NCBI GenBank assembly: GCA_016710265.1
Contig: JADJJL010000001.1
Span: 859,553-923,552 of the forward strand
Length of the DNA stretch: 64,000 nucleotides
Direction: 5' to 3'
From: Saprospiraceae bacterium
GTDB taxonomy: Bacteria > Bacteroidota > Bacteroidia > Chitinophagales > Saprospiraceae
Part shown: piece by piece, positions 7,948-28,551 of the stretch
Numbering within the stretch: the stretch's first letter is position 1
How the letters are laid out: the number at the start of each line of letters is the position of its first letter
The notes under the pieces: generated by a model
Seen by the model: only the letters and a program-made list of their open reading frames with translations
What the model was told of the DNA's origin: nothing
Databases searched by the model: none
Position numbers and translations under genes: made by a program

Positions 7948-7959
7948 TTTTATAAAAAA

Positions 7960-7992: not shown

Positions 7993-8011
7993 TTAATAGT
8001 TCATGAAACGT

Positions 8012-8422: not shown

Positions 8423-8581
8423 AAAATTTGATTTTGTTGGTTAAAAAATAATTTGTTTGAGGTATAAAAATACAAAATATTAACTAGATCATATGAAGAA
8501 TTAATAAAATTTAATCTTAGTCTTCAAAAATAATTCTCGAAATCACCAATTTGCCTATTTTTGTAGATAACATGAATTGAG

Positions 8582-12331: not shown

Positions 12332-15300
12332 TTATCTTATCAAGCTGATGTCTCCCTGTAGTTCAACGGACACACCGTCTAGCCTTTTTGCCTTAAGATA
12401 AAATACAAATACCCCTGGACTGAGAAGGGTACTATTGAATCGACCATCCCAGCCGGATTGGTCATCATTGACTGGAAAATTAGAGTTTTCAAATACCAAT
12501 TCTCCCCATCTGGAATAAATTCTAAAAATATCAATCGTGGTGAAAGCCTGTGAACCCCAAACTGTTATTCGATCATTGATTTGATCTCCATTGGGACTGA
12601 AAACATTCGGCACAAAAATATCTCCCACTAAGTTGACTTTAAATTTTACTTCCAATATTATTTCACAACCATTTTCATCCAACAAACGCAATTTATAATT
12701 GGTATCTTGAATCGGATTAGCCTCAGGATTTAAGCAGTTGGTACAACTGAGCCCCTCTGCTGGACTCCATTCAATCAAACTTGGGGTAAAATTGATATCG
12801 GGTTTAAGTGTGATCTTTTCACCAAGAGATATAATTATTTCCGGGTTAAGTGAGGTCAATGGAATAAATGGATTCGGCAGATCCAATGTAAAAGACTTTA
12901 TACAATCCAAAGAATCCCTTACAAAAACCAGATATCTTCCGGGGGCTAAATTTTCAAATTTATTGATTTGAATCCAATTGTTTTGATCGTGTAAAGAATA
13001 CTCAAAAGGTGGAACTCCTGACAAGGGGTTTAATAGGATCATTCCATCGTGTATGCCATAACATAGAGATGGAACAATGATTGAAGCTGCATCAACGGTG
13101 TCCTTTCGTAAAAATGAGAGAATGATACTGTCGCAGCCAAATTGGTTTACAACAGTGTCTACATAACTTCCAGGTAGATCATAAGTATTGGTCCCAACCG
13201 TAATGCTTTGTTCTTCACAAATCAGGTAATTCTGGTTTTCAATTGAAGTTGGAAATATTTGTAAGTTTGTAGTTATGACACTATCACAACCTAACGCGGT
13301 AGTGAGCGTGTCCAGATAGTTACCTGAAACTAGGTATCTTTTTGCCCCTACTTCAAGATATTGCCCATTGCATAATTCTACATTTTGATGCATTGCTGCA
13401 GGAGGATTAAATTTTAAACTTGTACTTACAATGCTATCGCATCCTTGAAAACCGTTTAGTGTGTCTAAATACGTTCCTTCTAAATTATAAATGTTCCCAT
13501 TAAATGTAAATGACTGTCCACTGCACAATACAATATTTTGCTGGCTATTAATTTCTGCTTGGACATCCAAAATACTGACCACGAGACTATCACAACAATT
13601 GATGTTTTTGAAAAAATCAAAATAAGTACCTGAATTAAAATATACATTCCCATTGAAATAAAAACTATCTCGAGCACAAATGGATATTTGTTGGGTTACA
13701 GTATCTTGAAATCGTTGGTCTAAAATATTAAAACTCAAAGTATCAGAAGCGCAACCAAATTCATCTCTTGCAATAAGCTGATGAAGGCCTGGTGATAAAT
13801 TGTAAAAACCACTTTCACTAACCCATCTTTGTCCATCCAAACTATAATAATAAAAAGGGAAAGTGCCGGAAGCAGTAATGTGAATATAATTAGAGGGATC
13901 ACAGCAATTCATGGTCAATTTAGAAGAATCAATGTTTAATCCAAGTTTCCTTTTAAATTCTGAAATTTCAACATCTCTGAATACTTCGCATCCTAGCTCA
14001 TCTTTGGTGTAAATTCTATAAATGCCAGCTTGTAAATTATTAAAAATTCCATCCACATTCCAATTTAACTGATCCAAACTGTATTGGTAATTTGGTTTAC
14101 CACCAATCCCACTCATTACAATTATACCTAAATCCTTACAAGTAACAGATTGGGTAAAAATCAAACTATCCTTCAATGGAATTCTGACATCCCTTAGATC
14201 AATAATTCGGGGGGTAATGCAATTACCCAATTTGGCATAAATGGTTACACTTTGTCTGGCTCCAATTTCAAATTTAGATTGATAGCTAAACTGGATTCCA
14301 TCCAAAGAATACTCAGCACCCGGAAAATCCTGTGGATTAAGCACCTCCAATAAAATTACATCCAATGCTGCACAAGAGTCCAATAAACTGGCTTTCACCT
14401 TAAGATCGGCCTGTTTGACTTCTATGGTTACAGTATCCTGATAAACCAAACCACATTGGTCATTCATTTTAAGAATATAAGTGGTAGTTTGATCGGGTGT
14501 GAAAATTGGATTTCGAATGGTTGGATTAGAAATACCGGTTACTGGAGTCCAATCATATTTACTAAATACAGAGGGTGCTGAAAGTTGGATGGATTCTCCC
14601 TGACAAATAATTTGATCCGGGATATTATTAATTCCTGTGATGTAATTTAAGCACACCTGATGCACATTGACTGCTCCACCAGTAGCAGAAGTAAAACCAA
14701 AAAATACATTGGGATCATTTAAAAAAATATCTTTCACCAGATCTACCCTCAAGCTCAATCTTCTATTGCAATCGACAAATACTTCAACAATTTTATTGGT
14801 CGCATCCCATCGGATGAGACCCTTGTGGAACATGCAATCTTCTGCATTTGCCAAAGTAGGAAAAATCCCTACAGGGCCTGCCAGGTTATCAGCTGTATTG
14901 TGTCCGACTGTTCCATTTCGCATGATGGCGAGGTGATCGTAAAATGGATCGTTATTCTCATTGTTGTCCCAGGTATCAAATTCAATTGCAAGACTTGGTT
15001 GGATTCCTTGGTATCCTATTCCTCCTCCAAAAACACCAATGGAAGTTGAAATAGGTTGCAACACAAATGCCAAACCATCTGCACCATTCCTGTCAATACA
15101 GCCTAAATTAAAATCAAAAAAAACATCAAAGCTGTTGTTAAAATCTACTTTATCTTCATACCACATGGAACCTGCTTGATTGTTAAGTGCCTGTGTCAAT
15201 CTGTAACAATCACCTCCTGTATTAATTGCATCATTGTTGAGTATAAAATTTTTATTGGTGGTAGATTTACAACTGTCCGGAACAAAAACACTGATGGTAT

Positions 15301-16828
15301 CGCTACAACCATTTTGATCCGTCACTGTGACCGTATATTTTCCAGCTGTCAGCAATTGGAAATATGGATCATTTTGGGCAAAACTTCTATTGGAAATATT
15401 ATAAATATATGGTTCTGTTCCAAATTCGGATCTCAATGTAATGGTTCCATCGCTTCTACAATTGGTTGCAGTTATATTTAAAACCTGAACGTCCGGTTTT
15501 GGAAAATTACTAAAATTAAGAATCATCTCATTGTTTTGCAAATAAAGATCATCCGTAGGGTTGGGGAGCGCTACACGCACTTTTATTTGGTGTATTCCAA
15601 AAGGCAAATAGAGACAACTAAGAAAAATAGTATCACTTTGTCCAGCCAATAATAATCCTGTCCAACTTATATTTTGTTCCGGCTGTCCATTGACAGAATA
15701 GAAAAAATTTAATTGGTTAATACTTCTGATTCCTAAATTTTTGAACACAATTTTTGGACATAGGGTATCCTTACAAAAATCTCCTTCAATTTCTAAATTT
15801 TGAATAGCAGCGTCAAATTCCCCAACAATTAAACAACCATCGGAACTAATCAGACCACTTCTCGAAATTTCCAACGCAGCAATCATTCTGTTTTTCTGAC
15901 CATTGGTAAAATGTGCGGGTCTACAGTTTGAGTAATCCATAAAATTGTCATTGTCATCCACTAAATCCGGCAGATCTGTAGCGCATGAATTGGTATTGCA
16001 AGCTGAAAAGGAAGCAGAATTGTCTGGAGGTGTATCGCAAACTAAATCTCCATCTAACATGCAGTCATTATTTTGACAGCCTCCATTAAAAGTATGGTGA
16101 AGTCCTAAATAATGACCTAGCTCATGGGCTGTCACTACCGTGCCACCAATGGTATTCCAATATCTGGCTTCTTGTACGATCCCATCCACGGAACATGGAG
16201 CCCCTGGAAAATATGCATATCCAGCTAAACCACATCCAAACGTACCATTAAAAAGATCGGTCACCAACCATATGTTTATATACTTTTTGCAATCCCATGA
16301 TACAATTTGCTTGATTTGTCCATCCGAATTAGAATTGGTTCCGGGTTGGCACATTGGGTCATTGGTCAGTGCACTTTCATGTCTTGTAATTCCGTTGGTC
16401 GGTCGTCCCTGAGGATCTCTTTTCGCAAGACAAAACTGAATTCCAGCGTCAACACCTTTGGCAGAAATAAAGGGTCCAGAATTTGAAAATGCCTGATTCA
16501 AAAATTCAAGTCCGATCTCCACTTGTTGGTCTGTAATATTATTCCCACTACCAATCAAAGTTCCTGGTGGACTTACAATATGGATCACTACTGGTAAAAC
16601 ATACATTGCTGAAAATGCCTTTGATTCTTGCAATGCCAATTGTGATCTTTGATAAATTTGTTGATTCAAATTCAGTACGCTTTGCCGATAAATTGGATCC
16701 TTTAAAAGAAGATTTTGATGCAAATAATCAAAGCCACAGTTCCCTTGAGCATATAATTTTTCAAGGTGAATACAATCTAATCCCACAAATATCAATGTAA
16801 TAATTAATATCTTCATCCTATCTATCAT
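12332..16828 (-). CDS. Large T9SS-secreted multidomain protein: M43 (pappalysin-like) zinc metalloprotease, Ig-like repeats, L-type-lectin-like domain, Cys-repeat modules and a type B (gliding-motility-associated) C-terminal domain
   Basis: Signal peptide. Zinc motif HELGHYLGLHH (nt 16094-16126) followed by CDTPPD, as in peptidase M43. The region at 14642-15250 resembles legume/L-type lectin domains (GSMWYEDKVDF...ADGLAFVLQP...LAIEFDTWDN...FGFTSATG). Four 51-aa Cys modules. The C-terminal VPNVFSPNGDQINDR...GVFVFYL tail (12335-12613) is typical of T9SS type B CTDs. Confidence 0.85.
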   Translation of the reverse strand: MIDRMKILIITLIFVGLDCIHLEKLYAQGNCGFDYLHQNLLLKDPIYRQSVLNLNQQIYQRSQLALQESKAFSAMYVLPVVIHIVSPPGTLIGSGNNITDQQVEIGLEFLNQAFSNSGPFISAKGVDAGIQFCLAKRDPQGRPTNGITRHESALTNDPMCQPGTNSNSDGQIKQIVSWDCKKYINIWLVTDLFNGTFGCGLAGYAYFPGAPCSVDGIVQEARYWNTIGGTVVTAHELGHYLGLHHTFNGGCQNNDCMLDGDLVCDTPPDNSASFSACNTNSCATDLPDLVDDNDNFMDYSNCRPAHFTNGQKNRMIAALEISRSGLISSDGCLIVGEFDAAIQNLEIEGDFCKDTLCPKIVFKNLGIRSINQLNFFYSVNGQPEQNISWTGLLLAGQSDTIFLSCLYLPFGIHQIKVRVALPNPTDDLYLQNNEMILNFSNFPKPDVQVLNITATNCRSDGTITLRSEFGTEPYIYNISNRSFAQNDPYFQLLTAGKYTVTVTDQNGCSDTISVFVPDSCKSTTNKNFILNNDAINTGGDCYRLTQALNNQAGSMWYEDKVDFNNSFDVFFDFNLGCIDRNGADGLAFVLQPISTSIGVFGGGIGYQGIQPSLAIEFDTWDNNENNDPFYDHLAIMRNGTVGHNTADNLAGPVGIFPTLANAEDCMFHKGLIRWDATNKIVEVFVDCNRRLSLRVDLVKDIFLNDPNVFFGFTSATGGAVNVHQVCLNYITGINNIPDQIICQGESIQLSAPSVFSKYDWTPVTGISNPTIRNPIFTPDQTTTYILKMNDQCGLVYQDTVTIEVKQADLKVKASLLDSCAALDVILLEVLNPQDFPGAEYSLDGIQFSYQSKFEIGARQSVTIYAKLGNCITPRIIDLRDVRIPLKDSLIFTQSVTCKDLGIIVMSGIGGKPNYQYSLDQLNWNVDGIFNNLQAGIYRIYTKDELGCEVFRDVEISEFKRKLGLNIDSSKLTMNCCDPSNYIHITASGTFPFYYYSLDGQRWVSESGFYNLSPGLHQLIARDEFGCASDTLSFNILDQRFQDTVTQQISICARDSFYFNGNVYFNSGTYFDFFKNINCCDSLVVSILDVQAEINSQQNIVLCSGQSFTFNGNIYNLEGTYLDTLNGFQGCDSIVSTSLKFNPPAAMHQNVELCNGQYLEVGAKRYLVSGNYLDTLTTALGCDSVITTNLQIFPTSIENQNYLICEEQSITVGTNTYDLPGSYVDTVVNQFGCDSIILSFLRKDTVDAASIIVPSLCYGIHDGMILLNPLSGVPPFEYSLHDQNNWIQINKFENLAPGRYLVFVRDSLDCIKSFTLDLPNPFIPLTSLNPEIIISLGEKITLKPDINFTPSLIEWSPAEGLSCTNCLNPEANPIQDTNYKLRLLDENGCEIILEVKFKVNLVGDIFVPNVFSPNGDQINDRITVWGSQAFTTIDIFRIYSRWGELVFENSNFPVNDDQSGWDGRFNSTLLSPGVFVFYLKAKRLDGVSVELQGDISLIR
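13103..13684 (-). repeat. Four tandem 51-aa (153-nt) Cys-containing modules inside the 1498-aa gene
   Basis: Consensus C-x-G-Q-x5-G/N-x2-Y-x3-G-x-Y-x-D-T-x5-G-C-D-S-x6-L. The first Cys of each copy is at nt 13676-78, 13523-25, 13370-72 and 13217-19, an exact 153-nt period. The copies are diverged at DNA level. Confidence 0.8.
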
Positions 16829-17002: not shown

Positions 17003-17010
17003 TATATTTG
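17003..17010 (+). promoter_or_regulatory. Candidate Bacteroidota -7 promoter box (TATATTTG) for the kinase-like/cyclase gene
   Basis: Matches the TAnnTTTG -7 consensus described for Bacteroides/Flavobacterium primary-sigma promoters. It lies 45 nt upstream of the ATG at 17056. No convincing -33 TTTG at canonical spacing. Confidence 0.3.
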
Positions 17011-17055
17011 CATGAAATAGGTTTGTTCCCATGCACAAATTAGTATAATTACAAT

Positions 17056-20000
17056 ATGTATCAAGCATTATCAGAGAGTGTTCGATCTAAAGTCTACCTT
17101 CACCATGAAGGAGAAAACCAGGAATCTGTGCTGGTTAAGACTTCTGCGCCTTCAAGACTTTCAAAAACAGAACTTAAAAATGAATTTGAGGTAACAAAAA
17201 AATTAAATCTTTCAGGTATCAGGAAACCTGTAAGAGAAAGTATCTTTCAAAACAGAGATGGCTACTATTATGAATATATTGATGGAATAGGTTTAAATGA
17301 ATTTATATTAAAAAATAGGATTGAACTAAAAACCTTTATTAAAATAGCAAAAGAAATCTCTAAAACACTTTCCGAAATTCATGAAAAAGGTTTTATACAT
17401 TTAAGAATCAACAGTCACAATATAATCATTCATCCACCAGATCTAAATATACATGTCATTGATTTTAGCTTAGCTAGTTCGATAAAAGAAAATAAAACCA
17501 TCAATTTTGCAGAATGGGGATTAGAATTAAGTTATATCGCACCTGAACAAACCGGACATCTCAATAAAAAAGTAGATCAACGTACAGATTTGTATTCTTT
17601 AGGGATTGTTTTATATGAATTGTGGAGTGGATTTCCACCTTTTAGAAATGAAAATGCGGCTGATACCATTCATGATCATCTTGTAAAACTACCGACATCG
17701 TTGGACCGTATTAGACCCGAAACTCCTCCATTTATCAACCTAATAGTTGAAAAACTACTAAGTAAAAATCCTGATACCAGGTACCAAAGTGCCAAGGGGT
17801 TACTGGCTGACATTTTAGAATGTGAGGAAATAATTAATTCAGGTTTGTCATTTGTCCAATTTAAACCAGGTAAAGTTGATTTACCTACCACTTTAAATAT
17901 TTCCACAGGTTTCTATGGAAGAAAAAAAGAATTTAAAAAGCTATCTAATTTATTTGACGAAGTCCATACAAGACATAAAAACAATGCTATAATTCTCATC
18001 ACAGGGCAAAATGGAATTGGAAAATCAAGACTTGCAATTGAATTTTCAAAATATTGTACAGAAAATTCCGCTATTTTTTTATCCAGCAAATTAAACCAGC
18101 ATGGTGTCCAACTGCCCAACCAGGTAGTCATCGATGCTTTAAAAAATTTGGCAATTTACATTCTTTCTCAAACCGATGAATCATTGGCAGAATGGAAAAA
18201 GATTATTCAAAATTCTGTAGCAGAAATTGGACAACTCTTAATAGACTTAGTGCCAGAATTTGCTTGGATTTTAGAAGCTCAGCCCAAACTCCCAAGTTTG
18301 AATGTCAATCAAGCAGAGAGTCGCTTAAATTTTCTCTTTTACAAAATCATAGAAGGGGTGGCCAATGAAAATCACCCTGTGGTACTGTTTGTAGACGATA
18401 TGCAATGGATGGACAATGCTTCTTGGAAAAATCTTGAAATACTACTAAATGGTAAAGGGCTCTCTAATTTTATTCTTTTAGGTGCTTATTGGCAAGAACC
18501 ATCGTCAGACCATCATGAATTTATAGAAAATTCTACCAGACTCATCAACAAAAATTTACAAACTGAACAAATACAACTTCAAAATTTAAGTCAGGAAGAA
18601 ATTGCAGAGTATTTATCTGATTCATTTGAAATGGAAAATTTAAATACTTTGATACAATTGGCTTATCGAAGGACCGGTGGAAATCCATTCTATCTGCAGA
18701 AATATCTGGACAGCTTGTACGTCCAAAAACATTTAGAATTTAATACTGGGTCTCAAAAATGGATCATACACTCTGAAGAAATCATTGAAATAGAATGGGC
18801 TGAAAATGTGATCAGTTATCTAAATGAACAAGTTAAACTGTTGCCAACAGATTGTATGAGAATATTTGGCATAGCGTCATGCCTTGGTTATCATTTTAAC
18901 AAAACTGATCTTTTAGAAATATCGGAAATATCTATCAATGAATTAAACAGAATATTAAAAATATTGGTGGACAACAATTTACTAAATGACAAATCCAATG
19001 AGGAGTACCATTTTGAACATGAAACATTGCACAGTACTGCATTACAATTATTGGATTCTTCTAAAAAGGAATTGATTCATCATAAAATTGCAAATAAATA
19101 TTTATCCATACTTAATAATAAAGAGACAGGGTCATTACTTTATTATGTAACTGATCAATTTAATAAAAGCAAGAGTTGTATAACTACCGCAGAAAGATTG
19201 GAAGTGGTTCAACTAAATTACCAGACCGCATTAAGTGCAAAAAATGCAACCGATTATGAACTTGCTTTCAAGCATTATACCACGGCCATTTCGATGCTTG
19301 AAAAAACTGATTGGAACAAACACTATGCATTAATTCTAAATTTGCACAATGAAGCCGCAGAATGTGGAATGAAAATAGGTCAATACATTGTAGCAAATAA
19401 TTTCCTTGAAATCTCTCTACAAAATGCAAAAGATTCATTTGACCGAATACTTGCCCATGAAATAAAATTGCTACACTTAATCGAGACCCATCAATTTTCA
19501 TCTTCTATAGAATACTTATTAAAAGTACTAGATGAGATTGGATACAACGTTAAAAGAAATCCAAGTAAATTGGAAATTCTAAAAGAATTTCTAAAAGTAA
19601 AATTTATGTTTATTGGCAAAAAACCACAAGATATCAGTCACTTACCAGAAATGACTGCTCAAGCGCCTTTGGCATTTATTAAACTCACTACCATAGCAAC
19701 GGTTGCCATTTTTGGAAATGCTCCTGATATCTTACCCATAATTAATTTTAAGCAGGTATACCTTTCCTTGAAATATGGCAAATCCACATACCTGCCCTAT
19801 GCAATAGCAGCGCATGGCTTCGCTATTACTGCATTTATGGGAGATTTAGACAAAGGTCATGATCTTGCCAAATCAGCTTTACAAATGACAGAAGAAGAAG
19901 ATTTACCATTAATCAAAGCAAAGGTTATGGTGATCTATTATGGGTTTCTATCCTATTGGAAAAATTCCATTGTCGAAAGTAAAGCTCCGCTCAAACTTGC

Positions 20001-22107
20001 ATATTCCATTGGGAGGCAAACAGGTGATTTGTTGTATGCAACTTTTGCATTGTCTTTTCACAATGAAATAAGATTTTATACCGGAGATAATCTCACAGAG
20101 TTACTTACAGATACGACCAATGATTGTTTAACCATTAAAAATCTAAAACAAAATTTAGTTTACATCATTTCAGAGTACCAAAGGCAAATGATTATTAATT
20201 TGGTGCAAGCAAATGAAAATCCATGGATTTTTAAAAATGAGGGATTTGATGAATTATACGCCATCCAGGAATTAAGCAATCTGGGTGATAAAGCAAGCAC
20301 ATTTGGTCTTTATCATAATAAAATGCTTATTGCTTGCTTATTTAATCAATATGAAATAGGTGAAGAATACCACAGACAAGCATCAACCTACGAAGATGAA
20401 TCCACTGCCCGTCAAATAAATTATTCAGCTTATTTATTCTATTCTACAATTACACAGATTAAAACAATTTCTTCAAATGAGTCTAAAATAAGAAATGAAA
20501 TACTAAAAAGTATCCAGAAAAAAATAAAAAAACTGCAATCTCATTCTCACTTCGCTCCTCAAAATTTCATGAACAAATATTTACTTTTGCTTGCCTTGTT
20601 AGATGAATATGAGGGAAGAATGAACCAAGCAATGGGACGTTTTTTAGAATCCATTAAATACGCCAAAGAAGCCGGCTTTATTTGTGAAGAAGCCATTGGT
20701 CGAGAATTGTTTTCCCAATTCTTATTGAAAGCGGGTGAAAAAGAATATGGTGAAATGATGTTGAATGTAGCCTACCAATGCTATAATAGTTGGGGCGCAA
20801 TTAATAAATGCCAACAGTTGGTTAAATTATTTCCACAAATTTTGGGAAATCAAGCAGATTTTGGTAAAGAAAGTACTATCGCTTCCTTTCAAAATATTTT
20901 TGATCTAAACACTATTATAAAATCCAATAAAATACTTTCTTCTGAAAATAATTTGGACAGTCTTCTTACCAAAATGTTAGAGCTTGTCATGACCAACGCA
21001 AGCTGCAGTAAAGCCATTATAATTATTAAAGATTCAAAAGGGCAATTGGTTCCTTACGCATTGGGATTACAAGAAGAAATAAGTATTCTCAAAAATGAAA
21101 TTCATCCATTGACCATTCTTGTTCCCCAATCATTGATTTTGTATGTGTCTCATTCTAAAACTGAATATGTAAGTCCCAATTTAAGTTTGGATAAACAATA
21201 CAATTTGGACACTTATGTAAAAGCGACCAATCCAATCTCTGTTTGTTGCATACCTATTATAACCAATCAGGCCCTATTGGGAATTATTTATCTTGAAAAT
21301 AATCTTGCGGAAAATGCATTTGATAAAAAAAGAGTGGAATTCTTTAAAACCATTACCTCTCAACTGGCAATTTCTATGGAAAATGTAGCACTCTATTCTG
21401 AAATGGAGATCAAAGTGACTGAAAGAACCTCCCAGTTACAACAAAAAAATCAAGAATTAACCGTAGAAAAAAATAAATCCGATGAATTACTATTAAATAT
21501 TCTTCCGGAAGAAATAGCCACAGAATTAAAGGAAAATGGTAAATCTATTGCAAAGAAATATGAACAGGTGACCATACTTTTTTCTGACATTAAAGATTTT
21601 ACTTTAATTTCTGAACTTATGGAAGCAGAAGAATTGGTTTCCGAGTTGGATACATGTTTTAAAAAGTTTGATGAAATTATAATAGAATTTGGACTGGAGA
21701 AAATAAAAACTGTAGGTGACGCATATCTTGCAGTTGGTGGTTTACCGGACAACAATAAAGCCACAGCATTAGATGTTGTTACAGCTGCATTCAAAATGGT
21801 TGAATTTACTTCACAAAGAGTAAACGATCGAAAAAAACAAAACAAACCTGGTTTTGAAATTCGTGTTGGTATCAATACCGGTTCCGTCGTATCAGGAATT
21901 GTAGGTATTAAAAAATTCCAATTTGACATTTGGGGAAATGCAGTCAACCTGGCAGCAAGATTAGAACAAAGTTCAGAACCAGGTCGAATAAATATTTCTT
22001 CCTCTACTTATGAACTAATTAAAAAGACTTTCAGCTGCGAGTATCGTGGAAGAATTCCAGCCAAAGGGATTGGAGATATTGATATGTATTTTGTGAATGA
22101 TCAATAA
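17056..22107 (+). CDS. Multidomain signalling protein: protein-kinase-like (probably inactive) domain, AAA/STAND ATPase, helical-repeat region, GAF domain and class III adenylate/guanylate cyclase
   Basis: Kinase-like fold with VLVK (beta3 Lys), NEFEV (alphaC Glu), SYIAPEQ and DLYSLGIVLYE. Walker A GQNGIGKS (18004-18027) and Walker B VVLFVDDMQW. GAF-like segment ending GIIYLENN. Cyclase domain (about 21568-22095) with FSDIKDF, KTVGDAYLAVGG and FDIWGNAVNLAARLE. Confidence 0.85.
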   Translation: MYQALSESVRSKVYLHHEGENQESVLVKTSAPSRLSKTELKNEFEVTKKLNLSGIRKPVRESIFQNRDGYYYEYIDGIGLNEFILKNRIELKTFIKIAKEISKTLSEIHEKGFIHLRINSHNIIIHPPDLNIHVIDFSLASSIKENKTINFAEWGLELSYIAPEQTGHLNKKVDQRTDLYSLGIVLYELWSGFPPFRNENAADTIHDHLVKLPTSLDRIRPETPPFINLIVEKLLSKNPDTRYQSAKGLLADILECEEIINSGLSFVQFKPGKVDLPTTLNISTGFYGRKKEFKKLSNLFDEVHTRHKNNAIILITGQNGIGKSRLAIEFSKYCTENSAIFLSSKLNQHGVQLPNQVVIDALKNLAIYILSQTDESLAEWKKIIQNSVAEIGQLLIDLVPEFAWILEAQPKLPSLNVNQAESRLNFLFYKIIEGVANENHPVVLFVDDMQWMDNASWKNLEILLNGKGLSNFILLGAYWQEPSSDHHEFIENSTRLINKNLQTEQIQLQNLSQEEIAEYLSDSFEMENLNTLIQLAYRRTGGNPFYLQKYLDSLYVQKHLEFNTGSQKWIIHSEEIIEIEWAENVISYLNEQVKLLPTDCMRIFGIASCLGYHFNKTDLLEISEISINELNRILKILVDNNLLNDKSNEEYHFEHETLHSTALQLLDSSKKELIHHKIANKYLSILNNKETGSLLYYVTDQFNKSKSCITTAERLEVVQLNYQTALSAKNATDYELAFKHYTTAISMLEKTDWNKHYALILNLHNEAAECGMKIGQYIVANNFLEISLQNAKDSFDRILAHEIKLLHLIETHQFSSSIEYLLKVLDEIGYNVKRNPSKLEILKEFLKVKFMFIGKKPQDISHLPEMTAQAPLAFIKLTTIATVAIFGNAPDILPIINFKQVYLSLKYGKSTYLPYAIAAHGFAITAFMGDLDKGHDLAKSALQMTEEEDLPLIKAKVMVIYYGFLSYWKNSIVESKAPLKLAYSIGRQTGDLLYATFALSFHNEIRFYTGDNLTELLTDTTNDCLTIKNLKQNLVYIISEYQRQMIINLVQANENPWIFKNEGFDELYAIQELSNLGDKASTFGLYHNKMLIACLFNQYEIGEEYHRQASTYEDESTARQINYSAYLFYSTITQIKTISSNESKIRNEILKSIQKKIKKLQSHSHFAPQNFMNKYLLLLALLDEYEGRMNQAMGRFLESIKYAKEAGFICEEAIGRELFSQFLLKAGEKEYGEMMLNVAYQCYNSWGAINKCQQLVKLFPQILGNQADFGKESTIASFQNIFDLNTIIKSNKILSSENNLDSLLTKMLELVMTNASCSKAIIIIKDSKGQLVPYALGLQEEISILKNEIHPLTILVPQSLILYVSHSKTEYVSPNLSLDKQYNLDTYVKATNPISVCCIPIITNQALLGIIYLENNLAENAFDKKRVEFFKTITSQLAISMENVALYSEMEIKVTERTSQLQQKNQELTVEKNKSDELLLNILPEEIATELKENGKSIAKKYEQVTILFSDIKDFTLISELMEAEELVSELDTCFKKFDEIIIEFGLEKIKTVGDAYLAVGGLPDNNKATALDVVTAAFKMVEFTSQRVNDRKKQNKPGFEIRVGINTGSVVSGIVGIKKFQFDIWGNAVNLAARLEQSSEPGRINISSSTYELIKKTFSCEYRGRIPAKGIGDIDMYFVNDQ

Positions 22108-22146
22108 TATCTTTTTAATTTAAAGGATTCCTTTTATTTACAAATG

Positions 22147-23595
22147 TTATTTAACATTGGTCAATCCCCATATGAAATCTGCATTGTAACCATAGCCCCT
22201 CGTGGTAGTATCGCTGGTCAGAAATCTTGCATTGCTATGACAACCCATACAACTGGAGTTCTTTTGTTCAAAAGTTTCTAGGACTGTATTTGCCATAATA
22301 TTAGGTGTATATCCTTCTCCCGAAGTAAACAAAGTAGGAAGAAAGGGCCATTGTGTCCCAACCAATTGATAATACTGCCAAACGGAGTTGGAGTCAACCA
22401 TTCTTATTTTTTGTCGATAGCGATCATTTATTGCATTTGTGCTCTGGGCGATTGGATTAATTCTAACAATTTGATGAGGTTGATTCCACAATTCCTTGTT
22501 TTGAGTCTTCTTCGGATTTGGTTTGTTAATTCGATTCGTATCTATATTCTCCGGATTAAAATAACTATATTTGACATTAGGATCAATATCAGGTAATCCG
22601 TCGGAGTTTAGGCCCGGTGCATTGTCAATATGCTCAAAACTACTCCATATCCATTGGGTAGCCTCTGAAACTTTCTGCACAATGTGCAAACCTACCAATC
22701 CCATTTCAACCGTTTGATTTGAATCATTCAGAACATTGCGTATATAATATCTTGATTTGTCATCTTTATCAGTCATGATTCTCCAAGCAGATTTAATGAT
22801 GGAGGAGTTTGGATTTTTAAGAAAATAATAATCACCACCCATTAGTTTAAAGCTTGAGTCTACTGTATTACCGATTGAAAAATAGGCTCTCCTATATCGT
22901 TCTACTATATTTACTTGGGTATCATTTTCAATCACCTTAAGTCCTCTTGTAACTGAAGGCCAATTTTTTACAAATTCTTTTTGACCTTCTAAATTATATA
23001 GTTTTGCGTTCGTGACGTATTCGTATGCTTCACGATTGTAAAATAATTGATATAGGGTTGTATTTCTATTTTGGTCAATTAAAATATGATGATCCGCTTC
23101 CGTTTTTTCTAAAGTATTTAATTTTGGAATGGTTCTCAATTCTGAAGCAATATAAGTGAGTAAAGAATTTCCTGTCACTTGTATGTGTTGATCCCAGCTC
23201 TCAGGAATTTTACCATCCTTGGTATAAAGTTTATGACTTGGCATCCAATATTCAAATACCACATGGTTGGATTTAAGTGCAAAACTTGAATTGGTATCCG
23301 GTGTACCATCCAAATTGGCTGGCCAACATGTAGCTATGAAAGTGCGCCAGGAAAAATCATCCGCGTTGTTTTGCAAATACAACACTAGGCTGTCCTTATT
23401 CTGGAAATTTGGAACATTTTGTATCAAAGGTAAATTCAAATCTGAGGGTATATTATAAAGCCCATAAAATGGATTTCTAATACCCATCAAGTTTGGACTA
23501 TTAAAATTTGTATTCATTTTGCATTGTCCAAGCAAAAGTATGGCAAGTACAATAGCGATCATCATGTGTGGAATGGCTTTAAAGTTTGATTTCAT
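22147..23595 (-). CDS. Secreted or lipoprotein-like protein of unknown function with a C-terminal CxxCH motif
   Basis: N-terminal signal sequence (MMIAIVLAILLLGQC). Single CMGCH motif at nt 22237-22251. Only 12 nt downstream of the preceding gene. No family recognised with confidence. Confidence 0.6.
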   Translation of the reverse strand: MKSNFKAIPHMMIAIVLAILLLGQCKMNTNFNSPNLMGIRNPFYGLYNIPSDLNLPLIQNVPNFQNKDSLVLYLQNNADDFSWRTFIATCWPANLDGTPDTNSSFALKSNHVVFEYWMPSHKLYTKDGKIPESWDQHIQVTGNSLLTYIASELRTIPKLNTLEKTEADHHILIDQNRNTTLYQLFYNREAYEYVTNAKLYNLEGQKEFVKNWPSVTRGLKVIENDTQVNIVERYRRAYFSIGNTVDSSFKLMGGDYYFLKNPNSSIIKSAWRIMTDKDDKSRYYIRNVLNDSNQTVEMGLVGLHIVQKVSEATQWIWSSFEHIDNAPGLNSDGLPDIDPNVKYSYFNPENIDTNRINKPNPKKTQNKELWNQPHQIVRINPIAQSTNAINDRYRQKIRMVDSNSVWQYYQLVGTQWPFLPTLFTSGEGYTPNIMANTVLETFEQKNSSCMGCHSNARFLTSDTTTRGYGYNADFIWGLTNVK

Positions 23596-23607
23596 TTTCT
23601 ACAATAT

Positions 23608-24636
23608 TTATTGTTTTTTAAATCCAAGATAGGCTTTCAATTTAGGCGGAAAGTTCGGTAGATAAGTGACTTTAAAATGGCTAAACCAAATTTTAAAATC
23701 ATTTGAAACATGATGTTGATTTAAGAAATAAGAGTGGACCAAATTGCTTGAAAATTCATTTTGACAATTAAACAAGTCTTGAAACTGATTGAAAAAATGA
23801 ATGGCTCTTAGAGGATCATCAAAATAACATTCAATACCAATTTTATCAAGTATCTCTTCTCGAATGTCTATGTCCAAATCCACTTGGCTTGCAAATTGTG
23901 CTGAAAGTGAAAGAATATTCATCAAAGTGCCATCCTGAACATATTTGTATCCTATTGATTGCAGAAATAAAGGAATATTATTAGGACCTAATTTCTGAAT
24001 AAATAAACGCAAGCCAGATTCGCCCCTTGCATGCATCATTCCAATTTGAGATATGACGGCTTGTTCTCCTAATATTTTATAACATTCTAATAATTTTTTT
24101 AAACTATCTGACTGAATACTTTGATTTGTAACCGTTTCAAATATTTCTTTCGTCGCTAATACAATTTCTAGTTTGTTGGCTTTCAAATTCGGTCCATAAA
24201 AAAAACTGAATGCAGGGTTGTTTGTTTGAATATCATTCTTATCAAATTCAAGCCAAATATTTTGAATGGTCGATTTCCATTTGATTTCCCAGTTAGTTTG
24301 AAATTTTATAAGAGAATCCAATGATTGGATATTTTTTGGATGCTTCCAGATTTTATTTTGAAAAGGAAATAAGAAATTTCTAAATTGTATAGGAGAATGA
24401 AAACAAATTAAAAAATCGGGTTCCAATTTAGTTTCTTGAAGATGAAACTCATATCCAAAATAATCACTAACAGAAAGAGGTACCCCTTCTAATAAGGATA
24501 TTACTTCATTAAAATAATCTTCATTAATATGTTTAAAAGGTCCAAAATTTTTAAATTTTTCTAAAACATGGACCAAGCATAAACCTACAAAAGCAGGATT
24601 ATCTTCCTTTTTTGTAATATCAGGTAGCGACACCAC
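23608..24636 (-). CDS. Hypothetical cytoplasmic protein (342 aa), possible five-repeat alpha-beta-beta-alpha barrel
   Basis: GTG start (no in-frame ATG for about 200 codons), 39 nt downstream of the small peptide gene. No signal peptide, TM segment or nucleotide-binding motif. Five pairs of beta-strand-like segments occur at a spacing of about 58-68 aa. Confidence 0.6.
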   Translation of the reverse strand: MVSLPDITKKEDNPAFVGLCLVHVLEKFKNFGPFKHINEDYFNEVISLLEGVPLSVSDYFGYEFHLQETKLEPDFLICFHSPIQFRNFLFPFQNKIWKHPKNIQSLDSLIKFQTNWEIKWKSTIQNIWLEFDKNDIQTNNPAFSFFYGPNLKANKLEIVLATKEIFETVTNQSIQSDSLKKLLECYKILGEQAVISQIGMMHARGESGLRLFIQKLGPNNIPLFLQSIGYKYVQDGTLMNILSLSAQFASQVDLDIDIREEILDKIGIECYFDDPLRAIHFFNQFQDLFNCQNEFSSNLVHSYFLNQHHVSNDFKIWFSHFKVTYLPNFPPKLKAYLGFKKQ

Positions 24637-24675
24637 TCTATTCCAGAATTGACAGGAATGGAGTAATAATTATGA

Positions 24676-24945
24676 TTATGTGGTGGTATTCCAGTAGGCC
24701 TGATTTTGATCTGGCGTAGTATTCCAATAAGCCGAGTTTGTATCAGGTGAATGATTTGCCATATATGCATTGTAAATGGCATTGATGTCTTCTATATCCG
24801 ACCCAGATAGATCAGAAGTTGGGGGCATATCATATTTTGCAATATTGATAGCTTCTTCAAGCGAAACAGCCAATACCTCAGATGGATACTGTGATTTCAT
24901 GTCTGCTGGCAATACATCGCCAATTGTTAAATCTGATTTTTCCAT
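24676..24945 (-). CDS. Small acidic protein (89 aa) with duplicated C-terminal AYWNTT motif; candidate modified-peptide precursor
   Basis: ATG preceded by an A-rich leader and a TATATTTG box. No signal peptide. It has many Asp/Glu and few Lys/Arg. The C-terminus is ...NSAYWNTTPDQNQAYWNTTT, and the two motif copies use different synonymous codons. Confidence 0.55.
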   Translation of the reverse strand: MEKSDLTIGDVLPADMKSQYPSEVLAVSLEEAINIAKYDMPPTSDLSGSDIEDINAIYNAYMANHSPDTNSAYWNTTPDQNQAYWNTTT

Positions 24946-24965
24946 GGTTTTTTGTTTTGTGTATG

Positions 24966-24973
24966 CAAATATA
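24966..24973 (-). promoter_or_regulatory. Candidate -7 promoter box (TATATTTG on minus strand) for the three-gene operon
   Basis: Plus-strand CAAATATA is TATATTTG on the minus strand, matching TAnnTTTG. It lies about 20 nt upstream of the ATG at 24945. No clear -33 element. Confidence 0.3.
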
Positions 24974-25117
24974 CTTTATAAACTTATAAATCTATTTGAA
25001 TAAATTATTATGGTGTTAATCTATTGATATTCAATTGATAAAATAATTTATTAAGTCATTTATATTGGAATAACCGGAATCCATTGGAAAATAAAAGTAA
25101 ATCTTATGAAAGAAGAG

Positions 25118-25191
25118 TAGCGTGGGGGAGGCTTGAACTCCCGACCTTGCGATTATGAATCGCACGCTCTGACCAGCTGAGCTACCACGCC
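25118..25191 (-). tRNA. tRNA with CAU anticodon (elongator Met or lysidine-modified Ile2)
   Basis: The reverse complement folds as a 74-nt cloverleaf: GGCGTGG-TA-GCTC-AGCTGGTCA-GAGC-G-TGCGA-TTCATAA-TCGCA-AGGTC-GGGAG-TTCAAGC-CTCCC-CCACGCT-A. The 1:72 pair is G:U. The anticodon stem lacks the three G:C pairs of initiator tRNA. CCA is not encoded. Confidence 0.9.
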
Positions 25192-25415: not shown

Positions 25416-25820
25416 ATGAAAAAGCGATTTAATCTTTCTATTGGATACTTGCAAGCTGTAGTTTTAGGAATAACCCTCAGTTTGTTTCTGACTTCTTGTC
25501 TTAGACAAACCAAAAATAATGATGTTCTTAAAATTAGTACCCAATCTAAAAAGCAAAGTTCCAAAAAAATAAGTCAGGTTTCAAAGAAAGCTTTATCCAA
25601 GAAAAACAATATCAATATTGCAAAAAATGATACTGTATTAATAATAAATGAAGAAATAGAAGTCGCGAATCAAGTAGAACAAGAAAGTCAAATGACTTCA
25701 GATTCTTCTATCGTGAATAATATTGATTATTCAGATAGTATAGAACTTGAAAACTATTTTGCCGAACTAGAAAAAGTAGAAGTGGACAGTTCAGATTTTG
25801 TTTTAATCAAAGATTATTAA
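25416..25820 (+). CDS. Hypothetical lipoprotein
   Basis: Signal peptide with lipobox-like LFLTSC. Low-complexity Ser/Lys/Asn/Glu-rich mature part. The 3' end overlaps the convergent bamA stop by 4 nt. Confidence 0.5.
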   Translation: MKKRFNLSIGYLQAVVLGITLSLFLTSCLRQTKNNDVLKISTQSKKQSSKKISQVSKKALSKKNNINIAKNDTVLIINEEIEVANQVEQESQMTSDSSIVNNIDYSDSIELENYFAELEKVEVDSSDFVLIKDY

Positions 25821-28312
25821 TCTGGTTCAAATCCAAGGATAAAGTTAAATTGGGCGTAACTTTTAATGGGCGCTCCTTGATCAGACAACCATGGTTTATC
25901 AAAACCCCAGCCATAATCAAAACCCAACAATCCAAACATCGGAAGAAATACCCTTGCTCCTATACCCGCAGCTCTTCGCAGATCAAATGGATTGTATTCT
26001 TTAAATGAATACCAAGAGTTACCCGCTTGATAAAAGGTGGTTATAAAAATAGTAGCACTTGGATTTAATGAAAGTGGATATCTAAGTTCTGCTGTAAATT
26101 TGTTAAATATGGTTGCAAAACCTTTGTCTACTCTATTGTTGTAGTCATTGGTGGTTCTATAAGTGATATCATCTACATCGTAGCCCCTCATTGAAACAAT
26201 ATCACGTCCAAGTAGACCGAAAGCCTGATTGTTTAGTCCATTCCCTCCCATTTGTACTCTTTCAAAAGGTGGCGCACCCAATTTCTTATTGTAATATCCA
26301 AGAAAACTCATTTTTGCGTTAAAGCTAAAAACCAACTTGTCTATTATATTGTAATACCATTCTCCATCAAATCTCCATTTATGATATTCGACCCATTTAT
26401 ACCTTTCTTCGGATGATATGCTATCATAATTAATAGATCTTCCCAATAGTGAATAAGGCAATGTCAATTGTCCGGATAAACTTAAACGGGAGCCAGTACG
26501 TGGATAAAGTGGTTCGTTGACCGTACTTCTTGTAATGGTGTGTTTTAAAGAAAAATTATAAAAAGTTCCATTGGCCACCCCAAACTGCGGGTTGTCCACC
26601 AAATTGATTCTCTCAAGATTCATGGTGGTGGATCTTATAAAATTATCATCCGGCCATCTCAATTGTGAGCCAAGAGCTGAGGACAATCTCATGCTGGTAA
26701 ACTTTCCACCTTGAATAGTAGTCTGATCAAAAGATGAATAACTGGCTGCCACGGTAAAAGAATTGGGTTTTTTCCCTCCCAACCAAGGTTCTGTAAATGA
26801 GAAGTTGTAAGTTTGAAAAAACTTACCATTGCTTTGCGCCCTTAAGGATAATTTTTGACCATCACCTTGAGGAAGCGGATTCCAAGAAGACTTTTTAAAA
26901 ATATTGCGTGTTGAAAAATTATTGAAAACCACCCCTAGAGTCCCAATGAGCCCAAAAGCACTAAACCCTGCTGACAATTCCAATTGATCCGATGGCCTTT
27001 CTTCTACTTGATATTCTACATCTACAGTTCCACGCCTTGGGTTCACAGGAGTATTGATACCCATGGATTCAGGGTTAAAAAATCCAAGTGCCATGATGGC
27101 TCTTTGTGATCGAATAATATCAGAGCGGCTGAATTTTTGTCCCGGTCTCGTCCTTACTTCTCTTCGAACTACATGCTCATGGGTGCGGTCATTTCCTTTG
27201 ACGATGACCCGATCGATGGTCGCTGGAGGGCCCTCAGTGATTCTTATCTCAATATCTACTGAATCACCAATAATACCACTTTCTACAGGTTCAGCTCTGA
27301 AAAATAAATATCCTTCATCCATATAAAGACTACTTACATCTCTTCCATCCTGACTAAAACTCAATCTTTTACTTAGTAAATCCTGATCATACACATCACC
27401 TTTTTGGATAGATAAGACATTTTGAATCTGATCTTCCGTATAAAGAGAATTTCCTTTTATGACAATATTGCGAAAATAATATCTGCGTCCTTCATCCAGG
27501 ACAATGTGAATTCTTAGCCTTTTTTGGCTTTTGCGCCAAACACTGTCTCTGATGATTTGCGCGTCTCTATAACCTTTAATGTGATAATAATCGATCAATT
27601 TTTGCTTATCGTCTCTATAGAGATCTTCTTTGTATTTTGATTTGGAGATCACCTGCCAGACACGTTTGGTCTCTTTCATTTTCTTACGAAGCTTCCAGGA
27701 TTTGATTTTTTCATTTCCCTCAAAAGTGATATTGGAAATTTTAAGTCTAGGGCCTTTATCGACGTCAATTAAAAGTCTAACCGAATTCTCTTTTTTCTCA
27801 TCATTAAATTCAAAAATATTGACGCGGCAATCCCAAAATCCCTTGTCTATATAATGATTTTTAATGCGGTATACGATGTTTTCTTTTACATCATCTGTCA
27901 CAATACTGTTTTTGGACAGTTGACTATTTACCAGCTCATTTAACTCTTCATGGGCTCCTTTTTTAACGCCTTTAAATGAATGCTTGGAATATCTTGGTTT
28001 TTCTGTTACAAGAATTTCAATGGTGGCAGCATCTCCATAAATCTTGCTAAATGAAATTTCTACATTGCTAAAAAGTTTCTGCTTATAAACTGCTCGAATG
28101 GCTTGGGGAATCTCAGATCCGGGGACCGTCACTTTTTGGCCTGTCCTTAAACCTGAGATTGCAATAATGGCTTTTTCATCCGTAAACTTATTACCTGTGA
28201 CTGTAATTCCAGTTATTTCGTAGGTTTTCTTGGTGTATTCCAGAAATTTATTTTCCTGGGCAAAGCTTGCAAAACTTGCAAGAAAAGCAATGGTCAAAAA
28301 GATACTTCTCAT
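25817..28312 (-). CDS. bamA: Outer membrane protein assembly factor BamA (POTRA repeats plus Omp85 barrel)
   Basis: Signal peptide MRSIFLTIAFLASFASFAQ, repeated POTRA-like segments, and a C-terminal beta-barrel ending in the aromatic-rich NFILGFEPD. The start is set to the ATG at 28312; the track ORF begins at an upstream TTG at 28345. Confidence 0.9.
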   Translation of the reverse strand: MRSIFLTIAFLASFASFAQENKFLEYTKKTYEITGITVTGNKFTDEKAIIAISGLRTGQKVTVPGSEIPQAIRAVYKQKLFSNVEISFSKIYGDAATIEILVTEKPRYSKHSFKGVKKGAHEELNELVNSQLSKNSIVTDDVKENIVYRIKNHYIDKGFWDCRVNIFEFNDEKKENSVRLLIDVDKGPRLKISNITFEGNEKIKSWKLRKKMKETKRVWQVISKSKYKEDLYRDDKQKLIDYYHIKGYRDAQIIRDSVWRKSQKRLRIHIVLDEGRRYYFRNIVIKGNSLYTEDQIQNVLSIQKGDVYDQDLLSKRLSFSQDGRDVSSLYMDEGYLFFRAEPVESGIIGDSVDIEIRITEGPPATIDRVIVKGNDRTHEHVVRREVRTRPGQKFSRSDIIRSQRAIMALGFFNPESMGINTPVNPRRGTVDVEYQVEERPSDQLELSAGFSAFGLIGTLGVVFNNFSTRNIFKKSSWNPLPQGDGQKLSLRAQSNGKFFQTYNFSFTEPWLGGKKPNSFTVAASYSSFDQTTIQGGKFTSMRLSSALGSQLRWPDDNFIRSTTMNLERINLVDNPQFGVANGTFYNFSLKHTITRSTVNEPLYPRTGSRLSLSGQLTLPYSLLGRSINYDSISSEERYKWVEYHKWRFDGEWYYNIIDKLVFSFNAKMSFLGYYNKKLGAPPFERVQMGGNGLNNQAFGLLGRDIVSMRGYDVDDITYRTTNDYNNRVDKGFATIFNKFTAELRYPLSLNPSATIFITTFYQAGNSWYSFKEYNPFDLRRAAGIGARVFLPMFGLLGFDYGWGFDKPWLSDQGAPIKSYAQFNFILGFEPD

Positions 28313-28551
28313 GTATTTTCTATTAAAGCAAGGACTATAACGCAAAATCAGATATTTGATTATTGCGCAAAGGTATCAATAAAGATCATGAAAGTGGCAA
28401 AATGTTGCGAAGCTGATCATATTGATTATCAGAACAATGCGTTAATTAACGCTATTTTTTATTGGTTTTTTATTTAGATTTCAATCATTTTGAATTAGGT
28501 TTGGCTTTAAGCTCATTTTATTAACTCAAGTATCTTTACTTTTGCAAAAAT

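Follow-up and report, generated by a model that had tools for sequence, protein, structure and literature searches.

What does a compact operon produce that combines a small peptide gene with two genes lacking any database match, and what might its product be used for? This question is raised by a locus of a Saprospiraceae bacterium lying in a 64,000-nt stretch of contig JADJJL010000001.1 (assembly GCA_016710265.1); the whole stretch is called the window here, and positions are numbered from its first nucleotide. Three open reading frames (ORFs) on the minus strand, all in the same direction, encode proteins of 89 (gene 1), 342 (gene 2) and 482 amino acids (aa; gene 3) and are separated by spacers of 39 and 12 nt, which matches an original prediction that described a candidate peptide-modification system between the 3' end of a tRNA gene and a convergent gene. 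The present analysis includes this convergent gene (gene 4) in the system and favors, at a rough probability of 0.55, a four-gene module of Bacteroidota making a peptide prenylated at tryptophan and functionally coupled to a cytoplasmic sensor.

Loci were gathered from contigs with homologues of the 342-aa and 482-aa proteins as well as from genome and metagenome scans, and all of them were then scanned with hidden Markov models. After removal of duplicates (L012 is identical to L004, of which L005 is a partial copy, and L011 to L006), eleven distinct loci were available, that is, the window and L001, L002, L003, L004, L006, L007, L013, L014, L028 and L108, from Saprospiraceae, Cytophagales and other Bacteroidia metagenome-assembled genomes. 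The peptide, 342-aa and 482-aa genes occur together in the window, L001-L004, L006, L007, L028 and L108, and the same gene set with divergent peptides is present in the Cytophagales loci L013 and L014. The neighborhood check with the 342-aa and 482-aa proteins as queries, which had been proposed along with the system, thus finds the trio syntenic in 11 distinct loci, and the notion of a candidate peptide-modification module gains from this conservation. Each of genes 1-3 is conserved in 10 further distinct loci at 26-99% identity and, judged from these alignments, all three ORFs are genuine, conserved genes; chance adjacency is excluded by the synteny across loci. The four proteins, including that of gene 4, diverge in parallel, identities to the window for genes 1/2/3/4 being 99/80/90/89% in L002 and as low as about 33/28/34/33% in L108. 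Close coupling of genes 2 and 3 is seen in the nine loci that were read or gene-called, with a gap of 2-12 nt or a 4-nt overlap.

All 11 distinct loci have an orthologue of gene 4 as immediate neighbor of the trio, which is convergent downstream in six, divergent upstream in four (L007, L014, L028 and L108) and co-directional downstream in one (L013). As this adjacency has been kept despite rearrangement, gene 4 is regarded as the fourth component of the module. In contrast, the outer flanks vary. BamA and tRNA-Met are found only in the window, L002 and L003, and elsewhere this place is taken by a mechanosensitive channel, a C14 peptidase, an amino-acid permease or a Na/H antiporter gene. With tRNA-Met restricted to the closest relatives and the flanks varying, the tRNA is incidental to the module. 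Hence, both proposed boundaries of a self-contained unit are in place, but one of them is a module component and the other has nothing to do with it. The module lacks tRNA-Met in L001, L004, L006, L007, L013, L014, L028 and L108, and a role of the tRNA gene as integration site is ruled out by these eight loci. In agreement with the gene content described earlier for the window, where no protease, ABC exporter, radical-SAM, YcaO or LanM-type gene had been seen, no such gene is conserved beside the module in the loci examined.

The likely chemistry can be approached via gene 2. At the sequence level, Pfam and NCBIfam searches at E ≤ 1 did not give any match for genes 1-3 except for one non-significant DUF1996 match, nor for 10 representatives of the gene 2 family, and PDB sequence searches with genes 1-3 were negative, with PDB profile searches using the family alignments giving nothing significant. 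The gene 2 family profile, when run against all PDB sequences, retrieved a putative secreted glycosylhydrolase as its single, non-significant match (E 1.8) and did not recover any PagF-type chain. To this extent, the statement that none of the three products is assignable to a family holds true. At the level of predicted structure it does not hold for gene 2. The AlphaFold2 model, calculated from eight family members (predicted local distance difference test score, pLDDT, 86; predicted template modeling score, pTM, 0.85), shows ten strands in a repeated beta-beta-alpha-alpha arrangement and agrees with the cytoplasmic barrel-like protein anticipated for this ORF. Foldseek comparison with the PDB resulted in 89 matches at E ≤ 1e-3, and ABBA aromatic prenyltransferases occupy each of the 50 highest ranks (probability 1.00, E between 1e-7 and 4.5e-5, query-normalized template modeling (TM) score 0.42-0.62, 7-13% identity). 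Fold matches are FunA, EpzP, NphB/Orf2, 5-DMATS, TleC, AmbP1/3, PriB, CymD, IptA, CdpNPT, AtaPT and DMATS1, of which 5-DMATS, CymD, IptA, PriB and DMATS1 are Trp-specific. Invariant residues of the family (E63, D74, N126, W128, E130, D132, Q197, R204, R210, D255, D257, E269, Y271, H320, K322, K334 and Y336) sit on all ten strands of the model, mainly at i/i+2 spacing, a pattern that would be expected of an active site lining the barrel. By its predicted fold, gene 2 is most likely assignable to the ABBA aromatic prenyltransferase superfamily, and prenyl transfer is predicted. That it encodes a prenyltransferase-fold enzyme acting on the gene 1 product is considered quite probable.

This assignment receives further substance from the genomic company of the gene 2 family. 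A word-indexed search had returned only 3, then 7 relatives, an impression of a tiny family that was corrected by an exhaustive HMMER search yielding 2,919 representative clusters at E ≤ 1e-3, 333 of them at E ≤ 1e-30; the members sampled have neither a Pfam or NCBIfam model nor an informative name. The contexts sampled for this family and for that of gene 3 are a small, anecdotal set, in which the gene 2 family is associated with peptides synthesized on the ribosome and modified post-translationally (RiPPs) wherever context is available. Family members adjoin Nif11/NHLP precursors (TIGR03798, TIGR03793), with Trp at the end of four of the six cores (two in L015, the others in L018 and L019). 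The NHLP precursors of L018 and L019 end in ...PRTPW and ...AGRRW, and the two Nif11 precursors of L015 in ...IPPIKW and ...NYNVKW. The latter locus (4053-9157; Pseudanabaena sp. FACHB-1998) has the prenyltransferase-fold protein fused to a C-terminal 2-oxoglutarate-Fe(II) oxygenase, encoded 3' of both precursors, and similar fusions are P0175 and P0195. A distant member, P0127, lies within a RiPP-like cluster (L008/L009, 1-11627) together with an amine oxidase, a B12-radical-SAM protein, a second radical-SAM protein and a YcaO protein with winged-helix domain, followed downstream by a 54-aa hydrophobic ORF. Another one, P0160, shares an operon (L110, 146-8361, and L111) with a class II lanthipeptide synthetase (LanM; DUF4135 and LANC_like domains), a metallo-beta-lactamase-fold protein and a 625-aa protein of no assigned family; no precursor was found on the short contigs of L110 and L111.

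Gene 1 has the appearance of a substrate for such an enzyme. An ORF of 87-96 aa with conserved N-terminal domain and Trp sites is located directly 5' of gene 2 in 11 of 11 loci, with 33-99% identity to the window peptide in the eight loci alignable by BLASTP (L013 and L014 were not scored). The N-terminal domain follows the consensus LTIGDVLP..Y..VL.V..EA..I....PPtS.L......IY..Y, and neither a signal peptide nor a transmembrane segment is found in the window peptide. In the C-terminal tail, the hexapeptide AYWNTT occurs twice, with the DNA of both copies differing at 4 of 18 positions; since all of these differences are synonymous, the repeat is evidently maintained at the protein level. Seven aligned orthologues have the sites SAYW(N/S) and then (Q/D/E)A(Y/F)W(N/S/D), and the residue ahead of the second-site Trp is Y, F or I across loci. 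More distant peptides carry SAFWNQ and QAIWAQ (L108), VRWMT and EYWTT (L014) or GKWNPGV (L013). Trp is the sole core residue constant over all loci, and it is the only one kept in L013, L014 and L108. A small gene-encoded precursor with a conserved putative leader and core beside a putative modifying enzyme corresponds, as far as can be read from the sequence, to a RiPP system. Leader removal and export, on the other hand, find no counterpart in the module loci, where a conserved protease, transporter or cleavage motif is absent, and the alignment of gene 1 peptides does not show a conserved GG/GA-type (double-glycine) site. A leader might conceivably be removed by an unlinked protease, in analogy to ComX.

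Assignment of the leader to the NHLP or Nif11 type is unsupported, as no NCBIfam match was obtained at E ≤ 1 (TIGR03793/TIGR03798) and hhalign comparison with five precursors gave a probability of 12%. The weak, non-significant similarity that hhalign reports concerns peptide residues 23-55 (24781-24879), with the pattern V.V..EE..I....PP.S..LS, and the C-terminal part of NHLP leaders; judged by this pattern, the leader may represent an NHLP-like domain that has diverged strongly.

The strong conservation of this leader admits a different view of gene 1, namely that of an 89-aa folded protein which is never cleaved and whose Trp-prenylated C-terminal tail serves as an anchor in the inner membrane, in a way reminiscent of eukaryotic CaaX prenylation, thereby regulating or scaffolding the STAND-type sensor encoded by gene 4 and perhaps the heme lipoprotein encoded by gene 3 across the membrane. 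Compatible with an anchored protein are a mean column identity of 70% for the peptide (seven-sequence alignment) versus 54% for the gene 2 enzyme, with the N-terminal 65 aa better conserved than the enzyme, the lack of a cleavage motif, protease or exporter at any locus, the cytoplasmic nature of the sensor and the position of both acceptor sites at the extreme C-terminus. However, the gene 2 family elsewhere accompanies classical leader/core RiPP precursors, NHLP and Nif11 leaders are likewise long and well conserved, and no role would be left for the exported heme protein, the gene of which is translationally coupled to gene 2. An uncleaved, anchored gene 1 protein is therefore considered unlikely. 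Alternatively, the peptide could be a secreted antimicrobial or otherwise bioactive prenylated RiPP, with gene 4 regulating production and the heme protein acting as tailoring oxidase or immunity factor. Prenylation and bioactivity do occur together in RiPPs such as cyanobactins and prenylated lanthipeptides (PMC13290415, PMC12715784), and the gene 2 family is found in lanthipeptide and YcaO clusters. But exporter, immunity and protease genes are missing, the module is chromosomal and diverges together with the host lineages, and the core AYWNTT is short, polar and strongly conserved across Bacteroidota families, whereas antimicrobial cores are usually hypervariable. A secreted bioactive compound thus seems quite unlikely, and the Trp-prenylated peptide linked to a sensor is the preferred interpretation.

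The sensor part of this interpretation is based on gene 4. Its 1683-aa product comprises a Pkinase domain (residues 11-245), an AAA_16 domain (286-473, E 1e-25), about 800 aa without annotation, a GAF domain (1299-1440), an HNOBA-type linker and a Guanylate_cyc domain (1499-1681, E 1e-52), which places it among the STAND NTPases and class III cyclases. A transmembrane segment is not present. In the N-terminal 260 aa, 9 of 9 aligned orthologues have another residue in place of the HRD Asp (HLR, HFR, HHR, HQC or HNS) as well as a degenerate glycine loop, and they retain the VAIK Lys, the DFG Asp and the APE motif, with PknB as the reference sequence of the comparison. By these motifs, the kinase-like domain appears to be a conserved pseudokinase. 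For the cyclase, inspection by eye suggests what we take to be the adenine-type Lys/Asp pair of adenylate cyclases along with a retained Asn/Arg pair. A cyclase forms the output in the window, L001-L004, L006, L007 and L028, whereas HisKA_3 plus HATPase domains are found in L013 (12670-17583) and L014 (2174-7204) and HisKA plus HATPase in L108 (1336-6609). An unchanging pseudokinase-AAA_16-GAF input with swappable outputs is the signature of a sensor. With adjacency to the trio being invariant through rearrangements and output domains being exchanged, gene 4 is proposed to sense the product or the precursor pool, and the specific claim that the product is the signal read by gene 4 is put forward as tentative, at somewhat less than even odds.

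A STAND NTPase combined with a nucleotide cyclase might also point to anti-phage defense, and gene 4 does match the PADLOC models PD-T4-6, PycC and MkoA. These matches, however, are due to the generic kinase and cyclase domains only, on account of which the defense reading was rejected. Genes 1-3 have no PADLOC match, the kinase domain is catalytically degenerate, the module holds a stable syntenic position in the chromosomes of related Saprospiraceae and base composition around the locus is ordinary. Organization of the locus around phage defense is hardly credible.

Gene 3 encodes the exported CxxCH protein that had been recognized in the sequence, with an N-terminal signal ending in Cys25 and CMGCH at residues 449-453. 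Homologues number 225 in an indexed database, with at least 555 matches in metagenomes, and most family members possess an N-terminal hydrophobic stretch closing in Cys. C449, C452 and H453 do not vary across 71 sequences, and K268, W271, W317, F320, N325, Y409 and Q415 are likewise invariant. Because an export signal coincides with an invariant CxxCH, covalent binding of heme c is predicted, and by this sequence feature the protein would qualify as a c-type cytochrome. Similarity to established cytochromes is lacking: neither a Pfam cytochrome domain nor any PDB sequence or fold match was detected, cytochrome P460 gave sub-threshold matches in just 6 of 71 family members (best E 0.0015), and the PDB profile search returned weak, non-significant matches to P460 and multiheme chains at CMGCH. 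The AlphaFold2 model is of good quality (pLDDT 88.5, pTM 0.87), and Foldseek did not find any analogue in the PDB (best E 0.18, TM < 0.1), so that a function cannot be assigned from the fold.

Only the closest subclade of the gene 3 family is linked to the module, that is, proteins at least about 35% identical to that of the window, together with the Cytophagales proteins of L013 and L014 at about 29-31%. A gene 2 homologue is absent from 79 of 80 metagenome loci carrying gene 3 homologues. Among 79 metagenome loci, the distant relatives typically come first in an operon, followed by a small subunit (PF12318, FAD-SLDH; 28 loci) and a GMC oxidoreductase (36 loci). Examples are found in L043 (6791-10443), L036 (6995-10794), L074 (6869-10814) and about 30 more metagenome loci, and these operons seem to represent a hitherto undescribed form of the three-subunit flavocytochrome dehydrogenases, in which the mono-heme subunit lacks a solved fold analogue. 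Neither GMC oxidoreductase nor PF12318 partners are encoded in the window or at any module locus. Two other relatives are associated with AAA_16 proteins. In L109 (3270-12712), the gene of a 28%-identical relative overlaps the start of a gene for a 1132-aa protein with a C-terminal beta-eliminating lyase domain (tryptophanase/tyrosine phenol-lyase family) and is divergent from a Pkinase-AAA_16-TPR protein gene; in L078, an AAA_16-TPR protein is encoded directly 5' of another relative. An association of the CxxCH family with STAND proteins may thus reach past the module.

The combination of an exported heme protein with A-Y-W sites leads to a further possibility, in which the peptide gives rise to a redox cofactor or aromatic cross-link, the heme enzyme oxidizing or cross-linking Tyr-Trp as in MauG-dependent formation of tryptophan tryptophylquinone or in pyrroloquinoline quinone-type systems and the barrel protein acting as chaperone or scaffold instead of prenyltransferase. 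The aromatic neighbors in the core and the occurrence of heme-protein relatives in dehydrogenase operons would suit such chemistry. Yet, the Tyr is not conserved, being replaced by F in L006 and the first L108 repeat and by I in the second L108 repeat; an export signal is not present in the peptide, a target dehydrogenase gene is missing from the window and the barrel retains its full set of invariant charged and aromatic strand residues. Accordingly, a peptide-derived cofactor is very unlikely, and prenylation of Trp remains the favored modification.

Known cases of peptide prenylation are cyanobactins, a few lanthipeptides and the ComX/PalX pheromones of Firmicutes. The pheromone systems are closest in logic. 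In PalPXQ of Paenibacillus alvei and ComQXPA of Bacillus, a precursor with conserved Trp is combined with a Trp prenyltransferase and a sensor kinase, and the clusters contain neither protease nor exporter genes (PMC10853753). Likewise, the module unites a small precursor with conserved Trp, a dedicated prenyltransferase-fold gene alongside and a sensor gene (PMC10853753, PMC13290415), and it also lacks clustered protease and exporter genes. In contrast to these systems, gene 2 is predicted to be an ABBA barrel, whereas ComQ and PalQ resemble trans-isoprenyl-diphosphate synthases; gene 4 is a soluble pseudokinase-STAND-GAF protein with cyclase output (His-kinase in L013, L014 and L108), whereas ComP and PalP are membrane histidine kinases. 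Moreover, a closely coupled exported heme protein is added, two internal acceptor sites are present instead of one and the hosts are Gram-negative Bacteroidota. The module would thus be functionally analogous to ComQXPA and PalPXQ, with all parts being non-homologous.

With regard to the enzyme, MppC is a leader-dependent ABBA prenyltransferase that geranylates C5 of Trp, its substrate being a lanthipeptide precursor whose Nif11 leader is long and structured (PMC12715784), and NctPC contains an ABBA-type domain geranylgeranylating Trp (PMC13290415). Gene 2 resembles both in its predicted soluble ABBA barrel and in being paired with a Trp-bearing precursor, a likeness drawn from fold and published description (PMC12715784, PMC13290415), and a further point in common is the family member beside a LanM gene, with others beside Nif11/NHLP precursors. 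Unlike the Moorena mpp lanthipeptide cluster, however, the module has no lanthionine synthetase or other macrocyclase, and its leader is not detectably of the Nif11/NHLP type. The cyanobactin F-family (PagF, KgpF, LynF and LimF; IPR031037) shares the ABBA-type barrel and includes Trp among its peptide substrates, but gene 2 has no sequence match to IPR031037 enzymes. Cyanobactin enzymes are leader-independent and act on macrocyclized cores, and their clusters contain PatA/PatG proteases, whereas none of the 11 module loci has PatA/PatG-type or macrocyclase genes. As for gene 3, its distant relatives take the slot of the cytochrome subunit in three-subunit operons of the FAD-sorbitol dehydrogenase or glucoside 3-dehydrogenase type. 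In contrast to such flavocytochrome dehydrogenases, the gene 3 family has a single CxxCH and a large non-heme domain without solved analogue, and the module has peptide and prenyltransferase-fold genes in place of flavoprotein partners. Gene 4 shares an AAA_16 core, a long sensor arm and a signaling output with PknK- and MalT-like STAND ATPases and AAA_16 adenylate cyclases; unlike the PknK- and MalT-like proteins, it has lost the HRD Asp and the glycine loop of the kinase domain and is dedicated to an operon for a peptide, a prenyltransferase-fold enzyme and a heme protein.

Combining these lines, gene 1 would be translated as an 87-96-aa precursor, the conserved N-terminus of about 65 aa presumably acting as recognition leader and the tail carrying two x-A-(Y/F/I)-W-(N/S/D/A) sites. 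The gene 2 enzyme would bind this precursor and transfer a prenyl group from dimethylallyl, geranyl or farnesyl diphosphate to one or both Trp indoles, a step proposed because of the fold and the genomic company of its family; prenyl donor, acceptor atom and acceptor residue (W74 and/or W85) are likewise inferred. The lipidated peptide, either whole or trimmed by an unlinked protease as in the case of ComX, would reach the envelope, where the co-translated heme-c lipoprotein might oxidize, bind or inactivate it. The latter is the weakest step of the scheme, as it follows from tight gene coupling and location only. Modification in the cytoplasm followed by an extracytoplasmic step, as had been suggested from the gene content, is plausible. 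Finally, gene 4 would respond to the product or the precursor pool by forming cyclic AMP (cAMP) in the window organism and by a phosphorelay in lineages with histidine-kinase output.

Several observations weigh against this scheme. A sequence-level link from gene 2 to any characterized prenyltransferase is missing in Pfam, NCBIfam and PDB profile searches, and its fold matches are only modest with TM values of 0.42-0.62 at 7-13% identity. In the Nostoc locus L023, a gene 2 family member adjoins two NHLP precursors without Trp. The conservation of the leader beyond that of the enzyme is equally compatible with a small folded protein remaining uncleaved. Neither a protease nor an exporter is conserved in the module and the leader has no double-glycine site, so that release and export of a signal can be inferred at most. 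As gene 4 has no transmembrane segment, it cannot sense an external peptide directly, in contrast to ComP and PalP. The relatives of gene 3 are mainly partners of GMC flavoprotein dehydrogenases without a link to peptides, which makes its role here guesswork. The most far-reaching version of the scheme is doubtful: a Gram-negative counterpart of ComX, with a doubly Trp-prenylated signal that is matured, recycled or quenched by a new-fold periplasmic heme-c lipoprotein and received by gene 4 for transmission to cAMP or a phosphorelay.

Table 1. Positions in the window of the module genes, their sequence elements and the adjoining tRNA gene.
Feature	Position	Strand	Basis or remark
Gene 4, 1683 aa, pseudokinase - AAA_16 (STAND) - GAF - class III nucleotide cyclase	17056..22107	+	Pfam; outside the coordinates of the original prediction
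Convergent intergenic region, 39 nt, between gene 4 and gene 3	22108..22146	.	sequence reading
Gene 3, 482-aa exported lipoprotein-like protein with one C-terminal heme-c motif	22147..23595	-	homologue alignment, AlphaFold2
CMGCH of gene 3, residues 449-453, putative covalent heme-c attachment	22237..22251	-	invariant in 71 family members
Gene 3 signal sequence ending LLGQC (Cys25, lipobox-like)	23521..23595	-	hydropathy peak 2.13, residues 7-25
Gene 2, 342-aa cytoplasmic enzyme, predicted ABBA (PT-barrel) prenyltransferase fold	23608..24636	-	AlphaFold2 model and Foldseek
Gene 1, 89-aa precursor-like peptide	24676..24945	-	conserved N-terminal domain of about 65 aa and C-terminal tail
Core repeat 2, AYWNTT, residues 83-88, proposed acceptor Trp85	24682..24699	-	A83, W85 invariant (7 sequences)
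Core repeat 1, AYWNTT, residues 72-77, proposed acceptor Trp74	24715..24732	-	S71, A72, Y73, W74 invariant (7 sequences)
Candidate Bacteroidota-type -7 promoter box TATATTTG	24966..24973	-	sequence reading; upstream of gene 1
tRNA-Met	25117..25191	-	3' end toward the operon

The layout of the operon (Table 1) includes a GTG start codon for gene 2, with another GTG one codon further in. The -7 box claimed to precede the operon, TATATTTG, is present on the minus strand, and its 3' end is 20 nt ahead of the gene 1 ATG. The underlying 8-mer TAnnTTTG occurs 124 times in the window compared to 91 ± 9 expected from shuffles, and as it is that common, a single match is weak evidence. A match located 27-35 nt 5' of the peptide ATG is found in 5 of 9 orthologous loci. 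With a common 8-mer as its basis, though one whose position is kept in these five loci, the box is regarded as a candidate promoter element. Matches at 17003-17010 and 17018-17025, just 5' of the gene 4 ATG, are consistent with gene 4 having a promoter of its own. A sigma-70 scan of the operon was uninformative, the consensus being unsuited to Bacteroidota, and a terminator scan did not give anything informative either, with no terminator-like site between the stop codons of gene 4 and gene 3.

Two neighboring ORFs of the window were considered in addition. A 1498-aa ORF (12332-16828, minus strand) adjoins the sensor gene and has orthologues in L002 and L003 with Peptidase_M43, L-type lectin and CHU_C domains; as it is absent from the remaining module loci, it is not counted in the module. 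Between tRNA-Met and the BamA-like gene (25817-28345), a 134-aa ORF (25416-25820, plus strand) encodes a protein with a lipoprotein-like N-terminus; it is conserved only in L002 and L003, and a Pfam match is not on record for it.

Prenylation of Trp in ribosomal peptides and the pairing of such a peptide with a sensor are ideas that are already known. What is unusual here is the heme lipoprotein without solved fold analogue, the pseudokinase-STAND-cyclase partner, the Bacteroidota host and the large unannotated prenyltransferase-fold family. In the literature searched, nothing comparable was found for Bacteroidota and no description of this module. For experimental work, the locus offers a concrete four-gene system testable in E. 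coli. It also provides an entry to a prenyltransferase-fold family of about 2,900 clusters for which no Pfam or NCBIfam model exists, and a first functional context for an exported CxxCH family with a confident model but no solved structural analogue. In addition, a giant pseudokinase-STAND-cyclase is tied to a candidate ligand, and to our knowledge ligands of such proteins are rarely known. If the product is indeed a signal, the module would connect a lipidated peptide with cAMP by a route that is new for Gram-negative bacteria. If it is a counterpart of ComX, a new class of cell-cell or envelope-to-cytoplasm signaling would emerge, and two large unannotated families would obtain their first function.

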